A stretch of DNA of 64,000 nt from Escherichia coli (GTDB lineage: Bacteria; Pseudomonadota; Gammaproteobacteria; Enterobacterales; Enterobacteriaceae). Below are positions 42,221-48,389 of the stretch, in pieces. The stretch lies in the NCBI RefSeq assembly GCF_003790525.1, contig NZ_CP033635.1, one strand, 5' to 3'. The notes below the pieces were generated by a model. It searched no databases, was not told the origin of the DNA, and saw only the letters and a program-made list of their open reading frames with translations. Position 1 is the first letter of the stretch. Each line of letters begins with the position of its first letter. The translations under genes were made by a program, and so were the position numbers.

Positions 42221-44896
42221 TTAAGCGGATTTCTTCGCTTTTTTCTCAGCTTTAGCCGGAGCGGCTTCTTTTTTCGCTGCAGTTTCACCTTCTACATAAT
42301 CACGACCGTAGTAGGTATCCAGCAGAATCTGTTTCAGCTCGGAGATCAGTGGGTAACGCGGGTTAGCGCCGGTGCACTGGTCATCGAATGCATCTTCAGA
42401 CAGTTTATCCACATTCGCCAGGAAGTCTGCTTCCTGAACGCCAGCTTCACGGATAGATTTCGGAATACCCAGTTCAGCTTTCAGCGTTTCCAGCCATGCC
42501 AGCAGTTTCTCGATCTTAGCAGCAGTACGGTCGCCCGGTGCGCTCAGACCCAGGTGGTCAGCAATTTCAGCATAACGACGGCGAGCCTGCGGACGGTCAT
42601 ACTGGCTGAATGCAGTCTGCTTGGTCGGGTTGTCGTTCGCGTTGTAGCGAATAACGTTACAAATCAGCAGGGCGTTTGCCAGACCGTGCGGAATATGGAA
42701 CTGGGAACCCAGTTTGTGCGCCATTGAGTGACATACACCCAGGAAGGCGTTCGCAAACGCGATACCCGCGATAGTTGCTGCACTGTGAACACGTTCACGC
42801 GCTACCGGATTTTTAGAACCTTCGTGGTAGGACGCTGGCAGATATTCTTTCAGCAGTTTCAGTGCCTGCAGTGCCTGACCATCAGAGAACTCAGATGCCA
42901 GTACAGAAACATAAGCTTCCATGGCGTGAGTTACTGCGTCCAGACCACCGAAAGCACACAGAGACTTCGGCATGTCCATAACCAGGTTGGCATCGACAAT
43001 CGCCATATCCGGGGTCAGCGCATAGTCTGCCAGCGGATATTTCTGACCAGTAGCGTCGTCAGTTACAACCGCAAACGGAGTGACTTCAGAACCTGTACCA
43101 GAAGTGGTGGTGACAGCGATCATTTTCGCTTTCACGCCCATTTTCGGGAACTTGTAGATACGTTTACGGATATCCATAAAGCGCAGCGCCAGCTCTTCGA
43201 AGTGAGTTTCCGGATGTTCGTACATAACCCACATGATCTTCGCGGCGTCCATCGGGGAACCACCACCTAGCGCGATAATCACGTCTGGTTTGAAGGAGTT
43301 TGCCAGTTCTGCACCTTTACGAACGATGCTCAGGGTCGGGTCAGCTTCTACTTCGAAGAAGACTTCAGTTTCAACGCCTGCTGCTTTCAGTACGGAAGTG
43401 ATCTGATCAGCATAACCATTGTTGAACAGGAAGCGGTCAGTCACGATGAGCGCACGTTTGTGGCCATCAGTAATCACTTCATCCAGCGCGATTGGCAGGG
43501 AGCCACGGCGGAAGTAGATAGATTTCGGAAGTTTGTGCCACAACATGTTTTCAGCTCGCTTAGCAACGGTTTTCTTGTTGATCAGGTGTTTCGGACCAAC
43601 GTTTTCAGAGATGGAGTTACCACCCCAGGAACCACAACCCAGAGTCAGGGAAGGTGCGAGTTTGAAGTTATACAGGTCACCGATACCACCCTGAGAAGCC
43701 GGGGTGTTAATCAGGATACGAGCCGTTTTCATTTTCTGACCGAAGTAAGAAACGCGAGCCGGTTGGTTATCCTGGTCAGTGTACAGGCAAGAGGTATGAC
43801 CGATACCGCCCATAGCAACCAGTTTCTCTGCTTTTTCTACCGCATCTTCGAAATCTTTAGCACGGTACATTGCCAGAGTCGGGGACAGTTTTTCATGTGC
43901 GAACGGTTCGCTTTCATCAACAACGGTCACTTCACCGATCAGAATCTTGGTGTTTTCTGGTACAGAGAAGCCTGCCAGTTCAGCAATTTTATAGGCTGGC
44001 TGACCAACGATAGCCGCGTTCAGCGCACCGTTTTTCAGGATAACATCCTGAACAGCTTTCAGCTCTTTACCCTGCAACAGATAGCCGCCGTGGGTTGCGA
44101 AACGTTCACGTACTGCGTCATAAACAGAGTCAACAACAACAACAGACTGTTCAGAAGCACAGATTACGCCGTTGTCGAAGGTTTTGGACATCAGCACAGA
44201 TGCAACTGCACGTTTGATATCAGCAGTTTCATCGATAACAACAGGCGTGTTACCCGCGCCTACACCGATAGCTGGTTTACCGGAGCTGTATGCGGCTTTA
44301 ACCATGCCCGGACCACCAGTCGCGAGGATCAGGTTGATGTCTGGGTGGTGCATCAGTGCGTTAGACAGTTCAACCGAAGGTTGATCGATCCAGCCGATCA
44401 GATCTTTCGGAGCACCGGCAGCGATAGCAGCCTGCAGAACGATATCAGCTGCTTTGTTGGTTGCATCTTTTGCACGCGGGTGCGGGGAGAAGATAATAGC
44501 GTTACGGGTCTTCAGGCTGATCAGCGATTTGAAGATAGCAGTTGAAGTCGGGTTAGTGGTCGGAACGATACCGCAAATAATACCGATTGGTTCAGCGATA
44601 GTGATGGTACCAAAAGTGTCGTCTTCAGACAGAACACCACAGGTTTTTTCATCTTTATAGGCGTTGTAGATATATTCAGAAGCAAAGTGGTTTTTGATCA
44701 CTTTATCTTCGACGATACCCATGCCGGATTCGGCAACGGCCATTTTCGCGAGTGGGATTCGAGCATCTGCAGCAGCCAGAGCGGCGGCGCGGAAGATTTT
44801 GTCTACTTGCTCTTGAGTGAAACTGGCATATTCACGCTGGGCTTTTTTTACACGCTCTACGAGTGCGTTAAGTTCAGCGACATTAGTAACAGCCAT
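42221..44896 (-). CDS. adhE: Bifunctional acetaldehyde-CoA/alcohol dehydrogenase
   Basis: ORF track; 891 aa [35 protein letters not shown]. Confidence 0.97.
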
Positions 44897-45372
44897 AATG
44901 CTCTCCTGATAATGTTAAACTTTTTTAGTAAATCATCTGCTCGAATACGAGAGTATAGTCAGTGCGGTGATGATTTGCTTAACCGATGGAAATCAAAAGC
45001 TTACTCGCGCTCACACTCACTGTGATTTACTAAAAGAGTTTAAACATTAGAGTTATTATCTCTAATGCGTCACTTCCAGGTGGCGTAAGCAAGATTACTC
45101 ACTTCTGGGTACTGATTACGTGATCTAAATCAAAATTTTGCAAAGCTGACACCTTTCAGCATGGCTTTTCGCCATTATAGCTAACAGTTAATAAATTGTA
45201 GTATGATTTGTTGACTACATTAGCATGTTTTGCACAAATAGATAACAATAACGAATGATAGCAATTTTAAGTAGTTAGGAGGTGAAAAATGCTGTCAAAA
45301 GGCGTATTGTCAGCGCGTCTTTTCAACCTTATTTATGGCTAACATTATCCGGCTTTTGCTTCGGAGCTAACC

Positions 45373-46020
45373 GTGATTCAGACCCTTTTTGATTTTCCCG
45401 TTTACTTCAAATTTTTCATCGGGTTATTTGCGCTGGTCAACCCGGTAGGGATTATTCCCGTCTTTATCAGCATGACCAGTTATCAGACAGCGGCAGCGCG
45501 AAATAAAACTAACCTTACAGCCAACCTGTCTGTGGCCATTATCTTGTGGATCTCGCTTTTTCTCGGCGACACGATTCTACAACTTTTTGGTATATCAATT
45601 GATTCATTCCGTATCGCCGGTGGCATCCTGGTGGTGACAATAGCGATGTCGATGATCAGCGGCAAGCTTGGCGAGGATAAACAGAACAAGCAAGAAAAAT
45701 CAGAAACCGCGGTACGTGAAAGCATTGGTGTGGTGCCGTTGGCGTTGCCGTTGATGGCGGGGCCAGGGGCGATCAGTTCTACCATCGTCTGGGGTACGCG
45801 TTATCACAGCATTAGCTATCTGTTTGGTTTCTTTGTGGCTATTGCTTTGTTCGCTTTATGTTGCTGGGGATTGTTCCGCATGGCACCGTGGCTGGTACGG
45901 GTTTTACGCCAGACCGGCATCAACGTGATTACGCGTATTATGGGGCTATTGCTGATGGCATTGGGGATTGAATTTATCGTTACTGGTATTAAGGGGATTT
46001 TCCCCGGCTTGCTTAATTAA
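45373..46020 (+). CDS. ychE: MarC-family inner-membrane protein YchE
   Basis: ORF track; 215 aa polytopic. Confidence 0.9.
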   Translation: MIQTLFDFPVYFKFFIGLFALVNPVGIIPVFISMTSYQTAAARNKTNLTANLSVAIILWISLFLGDTILQLFGISIDSFRIAGGILVVTIAMSMISGKLGEDKQNKQEKSETAVRESIGVVPLALPLMAGPGAISSTIVWGTRYHSISYLFGFFVAIALFALCCWGLFRMAPWLVRVLRQTGINVITRIMGLLLMALGIEFIVTGIKGIFPGLLN

Positions 46021-46033
46021 TTCCTTTCAAATG

Positions 46034-46057
46034 AAACGGAGCTGCCATGCTCCGTTT
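46034..46057 (+). terminator. Possible terminator hairpin after ychE
   Basis: aaacggagc-tgccat-gctccgttt hairpin; downstream T-run is not immediately adjacent. Confidence 0.4.
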
Positions 46058-46757
46058 ACTTCGTCATTATTTTTACTTTGTTCCGGTGCAGTTATCAAAA
46101 GCAAAAGGAATGGGTAAAAATATTCTTCTTAAATTACAGTTTGTTATAAGGATTTCCTTAACTGCTTCTCGTCACCATCATGTTATTTTCGCCACATCAT
46201 AATCCTGGGCTTGCTGAAGAATAATTGAAATGATATTAGTAATTCCACTGCCTTTGGTAGAGGAAAGTGCTAAATAATAATCAATTGTTAAATTATTGTG
46301 CATTTCACTACTGGAACTGTAATCAGAAAAGATAGACATGCTTAACCCATCTCTATTTGATTGAATTGAAAGATGTTTGTTAAGACATGGATGCAAGCTA
46401 TAGATTCTGATACGGTCAATAAAAGAGAATTGCTTAACAATTTTGCAAAATGTATTGGCGAGTAAGAACCGCATTTGGTACTTTCCGGGCAACCGCCAGG
46501 CGATTCTTTATTGGTAATGAGAATAATTAACAATTAAAGAGCGTCGTGAAAGAATAATGTGTCTCGACAGGGGAGACACAGTACGAATCGACATAAGGTG
46601 ATCGTCTGAATCACCAGAATAAATAAAGTCGGTGATAGCAATCCGTAACGATAAAGTAACCTGACAGCAGAAAGTCTCCGAGCCTGTGCAGGGTCCCAAT
46701 CCGGGATTACACATGCTGGTTAATACCAGTAATTATAATGAGGGAGTCCAAAAAACA

Positions 46758-48389
46758 ATGACCAACATCACCAAGAGAAGTTTAGTAGCAGCTGGCGTTT
46801 TGGCTGCGCTTATGGCAGGGAATGTCGCGCTGGCAGCTGATGTACCCGCAGGTGTCACACTGGCGGAAAAACAAACGCTGGTACGTAACAATGGTTCAGA
46901 AGTTCAGTCATTAGATCCGCACAAAATTGAAGGTGTTCCGGAGTCTAATATCAGCCGAGACCTGTTTGAAGGCTTACTGGTTAGCGATCTTGACGGCCAT
47001 CCGGCACCTGGCGTCGCTGAATCCTGGGATAATAAAGACGCGAAAGTCTGGACCTTCCATTTGCGTAAAGATGCGAAATGGTCTGATGGCACGCCAGTCA
47101 CAGCACAAGACTTTGTGTATAGCTGGCAACGTTCTGTTGATCCAAACACTGCTTCTCCGTATGCCAGTTATCTGCAATATGGGCATATCGCCGGTATTGA
47201 TGAAATTCTTGAAGGGAAAAAACCGATTACCGATCTCGGCGTGAAAGCTATTGATGATCACACATTAGAAGTCACCTTAAGTGAACCTGTTCCGTACTTC
47301 TATAAATTACTTGTTCACCCATCAACTTCACCGGTGCCAAAAGCCGCTATCGAGAAATTCGGCGAAAAATGGACCCAGCCTGGTAATATCGTCACCAACG
47401 GTGCCTATACCTTAAAAGATTGGGTCGTAAACGAACGAATCGTTCTTGAACGCAGCCCGACCTACTGGAACAACGCGAAAACCGTTATTAACCAAGTAAC
47501 CTATTTGCCTATTGCTTCTGAAGTTACCGATGTCAACCGCTACCGTAGTGGTGAAATCGACATGACTTATAACAACATGCCGATCGAATTGTTCCAGAAG
47601 CTGAAAAAAGAGATCCCGGACGAAGTTCACGTTGATCCATACCTGTGCACTTACTATTACGAAATTAACAACCAGAAACCGCCATTTAATGACGTGCGTG
47701 TGCGTACCGCACTGAAATTGGGTATGGACCGCGATATCATTGTTAATAAAGTGAAAGCGCAGGGCGACATGCCCGCCTATGGTTACACTCCACCATATAC
47801 TGATGGCGCAAAATTGACTCAGCCGGAATGGTTTGGCTGGAGTCAGGAAAAACGTAACGAAGAAGCGAAAAAACTGCTGGCTGAAGCGGGTTATACCGCA
47901 GACAAACCGTTGACCATCAACCTGTTGTATAACACCTCCGATCTGCATAAAAAGCTGGCGATTGCTGCCTCTTCATTGTGGAAGAAAAACATTGGTGTAA
48001 ACGTCAAACTGGTTAACCAGGAGTGGAAAACGTTCCTCGACACCCGTCACCAGGGCACTTTTGATGTGGCCCGTGCAGGCTGGTGTGCAGACTACAACGA
48101 ACCAACTTCCTTCCTGAACACCATGCTGTCGAACAGCTCGATGAATACCGCGCATTATAAGAGCCCGGCCTTTGACAGCATTATGGCGGAAACGCTGAAA
48201 GCGACTGACGAGGCGCAGCGCACAGCTCTGTACACTAAAGCAGAACAACAGCTGGATAAGGATTCGGCCATTGTTCCTGTTTATTACTACGTGAATGCGC
48301 GTCTGGTGAAACCGTGGGTTGGTGGCTATACCGGCAAAGATCCGCTGGATAATACCTACACCCGGAATATGTACATTGTGAAGCACTAA
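46758..48389 (+). CDS. oppA: Periplasmic oligopeptide-binding protein OppA
   Basis: ORF track 46686..48389; trimmed to MTNITKRSLVAAGVLAALMAGNVALA (signal peptide), 543 aa; GAGGGA RBS. Confidence 0.95.
   Translation: MTNITKRSLVAAGVLAALMAGNVALAADVPAGVTLAEKQTLVRNNGSEVQSLDPHKIEGVPESNISRDLFEGLLVSDLDGHPAPGVAESWDNKDAKVWTFHLRKDAKWSDGTPVTAQDFVYSWQRSVDPNTASPYASYLQYGHIAGIDEILEGKKPITDLGVKAIDDHTLEVTLSEPVPYFYKLLVHPSTSPVPKAAIEKFGEKWTQPGNIVTNGAYTLKDWVVNERIVLERSPTYWNNAKTVINQVTYLPIASEVTDVNRYRSGEIDMTYNNMPIELFQKLKKEIPDEVHVDPYLCTYYYEINNQKPPFNDVRVRTALKLGMDRDIIVNKVKAQGDMPAYGYTPPYTDGAKLTQPEWFGWSQEKRNEEAKKLLAEAGYTADKPLTINLLYNTSDLHKKLAIAASSLWKKNIGVNVKLVNQEWKTFLDTRHQGTFDVARAGWCADYNEPTSFLNTMLSNSSMNTAHYKSPAFDSIMAETLKATDEAQRTALYTKAEQQLDKDSAIVPVYYYVNARLVKPWVGGYTGKDPLDNTYTRNMYIVKH

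Follow-up and report, generated by a model that had tools for sequence, protein, structure and literature searches.

The AT-rich ychE-oppA spacer of Escherichia coli as a control region of oppABCDF, with a minus-strand ORF that is very probably a chance antisense frame

The DNA between ychE and oppA in Escherichia coli raises a question with two parts: what the long AT-rich sequence upstream of oppABCDF contains, and whether the open reading frame (ORF) on its minus strand is a gene. We have analyzed this locus in one stretch of 64,000 nucleotides (contig NZ_CP033635.1), which is called the window below and to which all coordinates refer. The gene order is adhE (minus strand, 42221-44896), ychT (45289-45342), ychE (45373-46020) and oppA, and because ychE ends at 46020 and the ATG of oppA is at 46758, the spacer is 46021-46757 with a length of 737 bp. 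YchT, a small protein of 17 aa (45289-45342, plus strand), is annotated upstream of ychE in RefSeq, and PGAP records name the gene ychE. The spacer is 100% identical to that of E. coli SMS-3-5 (NC_010498.1) and is present in 5423 of 5426 complete E. coli genomes with identity of 93-100%. Twelve records labeled as plasmids (150 kb to 4.9 Mb) contain the entire spacer; all are typed as non-mobilizable, and therefore they are probably mislabeled chromosome pieces.

A first-pass annotation, which was made from the letters of the sequence, had described about 700 bp of AT-rich DNA before oppA and a minus-strand ORF at 46178-46492, and both are as described. The GC content is 0.373 in the spacer and 0.340 in the ORF segment, the latter being at the 2.7th percentile of 315-bp windows, and that of the whole window is 49.3%. 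The remark that the ORF is AT-rich with unusual composition is thus right as to its own GC content, but the adhE-ychE spacer is equally AT-rich (0.368), and such low GC is typical of this neighboring regulatory spacer. The ORF had also been taken as unannotated, which is incorrect; its possible extents are as follows.

46178-46492, minus strand: 104-codon ORF, judged non-coding (104 aa from a TTG start, 98 aa from ATG 46474, 53 aa from ATG 46339)

In the RefSeq entry of SMS-3-5 (NC_010498.1), 46178-46339 on the minus strand is the hypothetical protein WP_000021850.1 of 53 aa. A 98-aa CDS, WP_001211520.1, covers the ORF in K-12 CP010441, and the 98-aa version is found also in several other strains, being the RefSeq call in most E. 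coli genomes; no CDS is annotated over the ORF in UTI89, O157:H7, A32, Seattle 1946 and others. When a spread sample of 60 E. coli genomes was inspected, the words "hypothetical protein" stood under the ORF match in 46. Extents of 53 aa, 98 aa and none on 98%-identical DNA are a sign of an unstable gene call. The ORF resembles spurious antisense ORFs in AT-rich intergenic DNA in its inconsistent starts, its orphan distribution and its lack of a coding signature, with no difference of note.

Its length is not clearly beyond chance. The longest stop-free run in the spacer is 109 codons; among 2000 dinucleotide shuffles of the spacer, the longest run was 76 ± 17.5 codons, 5.8% reached 109 codons and 7.8% reached at least 104. 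In other genera, minus-strand stop-free runs are equally long or longer (up to 195 codons), in other frames and at other positions of the spacer.

Codon-usage scoring and a survey of conservation across genomes, both proposed with the first-pass annotation, were carried out, and neither gave a coding signal. The codon log-likelihood ratio is negative in the ORF (-0.22 bits per codon) vs +0.15 to +0.69 in adhE, ychE, oppA and oppB, and GC is flat over its codon positions (0.33/0.35/0.33). In the same eight genomes, variable sites at codon positions 1, 2 and 3 number 36, 45 and 40 in the ORF vs 19, 2 and 106 in ychE, and the column entropies for 75 species are 0.95/1.03/0.98 and 0.34/0.11/1.33, respectively, so that there is no third-position excess in the ORF. 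The homologous segment was compared in 13 E. coli sensu stricto genomes and five other Escherichia lineages. Premature stops are found at codon 42 in O157:H7, codon 49 in ST131 and codon 21 in Escherichia sp. MOD1-EC7003, and several stops with a frameshift in the lineages E69, E1V33, E. whittamii and SCPM-O-B-8794; the ORF is hence cut short in each of the five lineages compared outside E. coli. The first-pass annotation, which had suggested that the ORF may be spurious, had named interruption in close relatives in advance as its refuting observation, and this interruption is what the comparison gave. Within E. coli, 7 of the changes are synonymous, 12 are non-synonymous and 1 is a stop, and random single changes would be synonymous in 20% and stops in 5%; because one stop is seen against 5% by random mutation, nonsense changes are not depleted.

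Searches with the ORF product gave a concordant picture. No family was matched in Pfam and NCBIfam scans, and the relatives found in 5.8 billion clustered proteins (40 matches) and by an exhaustive HMMER search of 1.84 billion representatives (23 matches) were near-identical or truncated copies only. The named records among the matches are all from Escherichia or Shigella except one labeled Enterobacter hormaechei. No promoter-like site was found upstream of the ORF on the minus strand by a consensus scan. Because codon usage, substitution pattern, open frame in relatives and homologue range all fail, we judge the ORF at 46178-46492 to be non-coding, and the RefSeq calls of a hypothetical protein on it are annotation artefacts.

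The spacer is already known as the promoter and long leader of oppABCDF, within which the ORF has been mis-annotated as a hypothetical protein. We have analyzed the anatomy of the spacer, the positions of published elements, the non-coding evolution of the ORF and the family-wide conservation; statements on which promoters are used, on cleavage by RNase E, on the effects of sRNAs and on the binding of H-NS and Hfq come from the literature. For E. coli oppA, the published coordinates are +1 for P1, +246 for P2, +341 for an RNase E site (formerly P3) and +372-393 for MicF pairing (PMC9988348). Mapping of the K-12 oligonucleotides of that paper onto SMS-3-5 gave the positions of P1, P2 and the RNase E site, which are good to about ±2 nt. 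The +341 RNA begins with the T7 primer EM4528, which maps to 46587, so that the +1 of P1 is at ~46247. EM5064 (reverse primer of the P1 promoter fusion) maps to 46213-46247, EM4516 (P1 primer-extension primer) to 46282-46301 and EM4518 (over the MicF site) to 46617-46638, and the four are mutually consistent with +1 at ~46247, P2 at ~46492 and the AUG at +512. The transcription start of oppA, whose mapping had also been proposed, is thus located through published K-12 primers. The elements of the spacer are as follows, in order of their position.

46034-46057, plus strand: probable ychE terminator stem-loop (9-bp stem, 6-nt loop, T-rich tail), directly after the ychE stop
46181-46246, plus strand: oppA P1 promoter block; presumed -10 TATTAG at 46234-46239 (K-12: TATTAT); EM5064 ends at 46247
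46247-46757, plus strand: P1-transcribed oppA 5' leader of ~511 nt (coordinates of PMC9988348 and EM4528 mapping)
46251-46503, plus strand: Och1 (the "ychE-oppA" sRNA, 255 nt), from the clone sequence in the supplement of PMC4606813, with 96% identity over 253 nt
46258-46300, plus strand: conserved block A (GCAGAnGAATGTGCTAAATAATAAnCAATTGTTAAATT), +12 to +54 of the P1 leader
46270-46273, no strand assigned: IS5U target CTAA, from an MG1655 NC_000913.3 alignment split with a 4-bp overlap
46421-46491, plus strand: conserved block B and P2 core promoter; -35 TTGGCG at 46455-46460, -10-like TACTTT at 46479-46484, P2 start at ~46492
46527-46555, plus strand: promoter-like TTAACA-17-AAGAAT (consensus scan; hexamers match PMC3946193)
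46558-46580, no strand assigned: 8-bp stem-loop TGTGTCTC-GACAGGG-GAGACACA (terminator scan), in the leader between P2 and the RNase E site
46587, plus strand: RNase E cleavage site (+341; PMC9988348), where EM4528 maps
46618-46639, plus strand: MicF pairing site (+372 to +393), from the coordinates of PMC9988348, EM4518 and a predicted duplex
46724-46772, plus strand: ribosome-binding region with predicted GcvB R1 pairing; SD-like GAGGGAG at 46740-46746, ATG at 46758

The closest known system is the K-12 oppA promoter and 5' UTR (Carrier, Lalaouna & Masse 2023, PMC9988348; Igarashi and colleagues 1997), which is the same locus on the same strand with 98% identical DNA. All published primers map in SMS-3-5, and GcvB pairing at the ribosome-binding site (RBS) is predicted there as well. 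The differences are that SMS-3-5 has a small number of SNPs, among them T>G at 46239, and that it lacks the IS5 splitting the MG1655 leader. The SNP at 46239 (G in SMS-3-5, T in K-12) changes the presumed P1 -10 from TATTAT to TATTAG and could weaken P1 in SMS-3-5.

The hairpin at 46034-46057 has a predicted fold of -14.9 kcal/mol (z = -3.9), equalled by none of 200 shuffles, and is likely to act as the ychE terminator. The pair TTAACA-17-AAGAAT appears among published constitutive sigma-70 promoters, where it is assigned to oppABCDF and the ychE>oppA spacer with an H-NS flag, and genomic SELEX has placed an H-NS site in this spacer (PMC3946193), in agreement with the first-pass suggestion of an H-NS-type AT-rich tract. 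The stem-loop at 46558-46580 is GC-containing, and its identity is 0.99 among Escherichia but 0.67 outside the genus. On the minus strand it lies just upstream of the ORF and resembles an intrinsic terminator. A consensus scan for Lrp gave 98 matches vs 91 expected in the window, and the spacer has three 3-mismatch matches only. A scan of 44800-47000 with Rfam returned only mir-399 and NrrF, both of which are sub-threshold chance matches. A plus-strand ATG ORF of 30 codons at 46373-46465 was considered as a leader peptide and rejected, being intact in only 2 of 75 species. This frame is intact in all E. coli compared except WCHEC025157, in which the start ATG is changed to ATA.

That part of the AT-rich DNA would be a long oppA leader targeted by sRNAs had been expected from the first, and this is borne out: the leader from P1 is ~511 nt, and pairing sites for both MicF and GcvB are present. 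Sequences of the sRNAs for duplex predictions were taken in part from published primers. The predicted duplex of the MicF 5' end on 46606-46640 is -27.2 kcal/mol, and the MicF site has identity of 0.91 in other genera. GcvB binds the oppA RBS (PMC9988348); for its pairing site, which was likewise to be mapped, an R1 duplex across the SD and start codon is predicted at 46724-46772 with -24.7 kcal/mol.

An Hfq-dependent sRNA in the ychE-oppA spacer was reported by Raghavan, Groisman & Ochman (2011), as related in later papers, and Och1 is a 255-nt member of the library of Bak et al. (2015), in which it had no phenotype in a biofilm and motility screen (PMC4606813). Because the Och1 clone aligns at 46251-46503 on the plus strand, Och1 is the P1-to-P2 part of the leader; it begins 2-4 nt downstream of the P1 start inferred here and ends ~10 nt past that of P2. 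OppX, a MicF sponge of Salmonella derived from the oppA 5' UTR (Matera et al. 2022, as cited in PMC9988348), comes from the same leader, whose conserved MicF site is present also in E. coli. As far as OppX is described there, it includes the MicF site, whereas Och1 ends ~115 nt short of it; a probe over the MicF site detected no stable leader fragments in E. coli (PMC9988348). Conserved RNA structure was looked for in the P1-P2 segment (Och1), and RNAalifold gave 0 consensus pairs for 62 species, with per-species folds of mean z -0.81 and an E. coli fold of z = -1.87. A conserved structure for this segment is not supported, as the folds barely beat shuffles.

Since P1, P2 and Och1 map where they do, the ORF runs antisense to the upstream half of the leader and ends in P1 and P2. 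What the first-pass annotation did not contain is that the ORF is mostly antisense to Och1 (over 46251-46492), with its two ends on the P1 and P2 core promoters.

To see how the spacer has been kept in the family, ychE-spacer-oppA was recovered from 80 Enterobacteriaceae species, of which 77 non-IS5 loci with both genes, from more than 25 genera, were used. All 77 loci have a ychE-oppA spacer of 664-878 bp with GC of 0.34-0.45 and a shared set of conserved blocks, and OppA at the recovered loci is 79-100% identical. The conserved blocks are P1 (46181-46246), block A (46258-46300), block B with P2 (46421-46491), the MicF site and the RBS region; the ~120 bp between blocks A and B (46301-46420) is unconserved. 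In 62 species, block A has columns that are invariant or conserved to at least 90%, and block B with P2 is near-invariant, and the P1 block has identity to the reference of 0.65-0.92 in non-Escherichia genera. The distances between the blocks are as follows.

P1 core to block A: 39-40 bp in 72 of 77 loci
block A to block B, non-Escherichia: 165-167 bp in 64 of 71 loci
block A to block B, Escherichia: 156-157 bp in 5 of 6 loci, about one helical turn shorter
block B to P2 -35: 30 bp in 76 of 77 loci
P2 -35 to -10 block: 22 bp in 77 of 77 loci
P2 to MicF site: variable, 132-190 bp

No description of the fixed P1-block A-block B-P2 spacing was found in the literature examined. Its simplest reading would be a DNA-level phasing constraint on P1/P2 regulation. 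More specifically, the spacing may reflect a phased nucleoprotein switch (e.g., Lrp/H-NS bridging) that chooses between P1 and P2, or block A (AAAUAAUAAUCAA) may be a platform for Hfq binding of Och1; we put this forward tentatively, as a possibility that is more doubtful than probable.

When these elements are put in order, the probable ychE terminator hairpin is followed by an AT-rich promoter region, with an H-NS site according to the literature, and then by P1 at ~46247, from which the ~511-nt leader starts. Further downstream come P2 at ~46492, the RNase E site at ~46587, the MicF site at 46618-46639 and an RBS controlled by GcvB and Hfq before the ATG at 46758, and Och1, the reported Hfq-dependent RNA, corresponds to the initial 255 nt of the leader from P1. 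The 3' end of the ORF lies over the P1 core and its 5' end over the P2 core, with its middle over freely varying sequence. Short tblastn matches to the two ends of the ORF were obtained in other genera, because its C-terminus overlies P1 and block A and its N-terminus overlies P2 and block B. The ORF looks partly conserved only because promoter DNA is conserved, and that many E. coli strains still have it open reflects only the youth of the species.

We therefore consider it very probable that the spacer is a transcriptional and post-transcriptional control region of oppABCDF, and that the minus-strand ORF is a chance antisense frame. The ORF might instead be a real and very young de novo orphan gene, restricted to E. 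coli, antisense to the oppA leader and lost in O157:H7, ST131 and MG1655. In favor of this, 11 of the 13 E. coli sensu stricto genomes keep the frame open, about three quarters of the 60-genome sample have a PGAP-annotated CDS there, a weak SD-like GGAAAG lies 6 nt before ATG 46474, and synonymous changes within E. coli are 35% vs 20% at random, with small counts and a model that has no transition bias. A gene of this kind is nevertheless highly unlikely: codon periodicity is absent and the codon-usage score negative, the length is within the chance range, and what lies just upstream is a terminator-like hairpin with no minus-strand promoter-like site. In addition, two independent nonsense alleles in major lineages and an IS5 allele occur among ~14 genomes, which is not below the neutral expectation. 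Equally improbable is that the minus strand yields a non-coding antisense RNA, which would pair with the P1 leader and Och1 and modulate oppA, the ORF being incidental. Antisense transcripts often arise from AT-rich DNA bound by H-NS, and a minus-strand promoter-like TGCACA-17-TATTAT is found at 46302-46274, within block A; however, promoter-like sites are at chance level (4 found vs 2.7 ± 1.6 expected), and no antisense RNA for the ychE-oppA locus was found in the literature examined.

The first-pass annotation had also offered a relic of acquired DNA for consideration. Horizontal acquisition of the AT-rich segment, e.g., as a gene that decayed, was silenced by H-NS and left the ORF as its remnant, is scarcely credible. 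Although the GC of 0.34, the orphan protein and the H-NS flag for the spacer in genomic SELEX (PMC3946193) would suit such an origin, it is contradicted by the family-wide synteny: because length and blocks are conserved in the 77 Enterobacteriaceae loci from more than 25 genera, with similar GC and with internal spacing fixed to within a few bp, the spacer is not acquired DNA. Its presence among the complete E. coli genomes is not patchy, it has no hallmarks of mobile elements besides the strain-specific IS5, and the adhE-ychE spacer has the same AT-richness. A control region of oppABCDF overlain by a chance antisense frame is thus the reading that we keep.

In MG1655 (NC_000913.3), IS5U is inserted inside both the ORF and block A, at +24 to +27 of the P1 leader. 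This insertion at +24 of the P1 leader in the reference strain matters for the interpretation of K-12 oppA data. In NCTC122 and NBRC 3301, which are K-12-lineage records, the match to the spacer is broken at ~46410 and ~46344, respectively, which suggests further independent insertions.

Elsewhere in the window, 57352-60618 has a 2.3-kb AT-rich tract (GC of 0.36 or less) with a 597-aa minus-strand ORF (58570-60363) that has many hydrophobic stretches. By eye only, its product looks like a membrane-anchored sulfatase or transferase, and an adjoining ORF (57352-57828) looks like the C-terminus of a phage tail fibre; 57352-60618 is possibly an acquired islet.

For the annotation of E. coli genomes, these results mean that a false minus-strand gene, in three extents, has spread through thousands of RefSeq annotations and should not be treated as coding, and that this mis-annotated ORF overlies two promoters and a published sRNA. 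The spacer is one sequence that joins three literatures: those on P1, P2, MicF and GcvB, on the Och1 sRNA, and on the SELEX of H-NS and sigma-70. For Enterobacteriaceae as a family, the rigid spacing of the blocks is a small testable lead on the coordination of P1 and P2, and it is the only lead here that we consider worth keeping.
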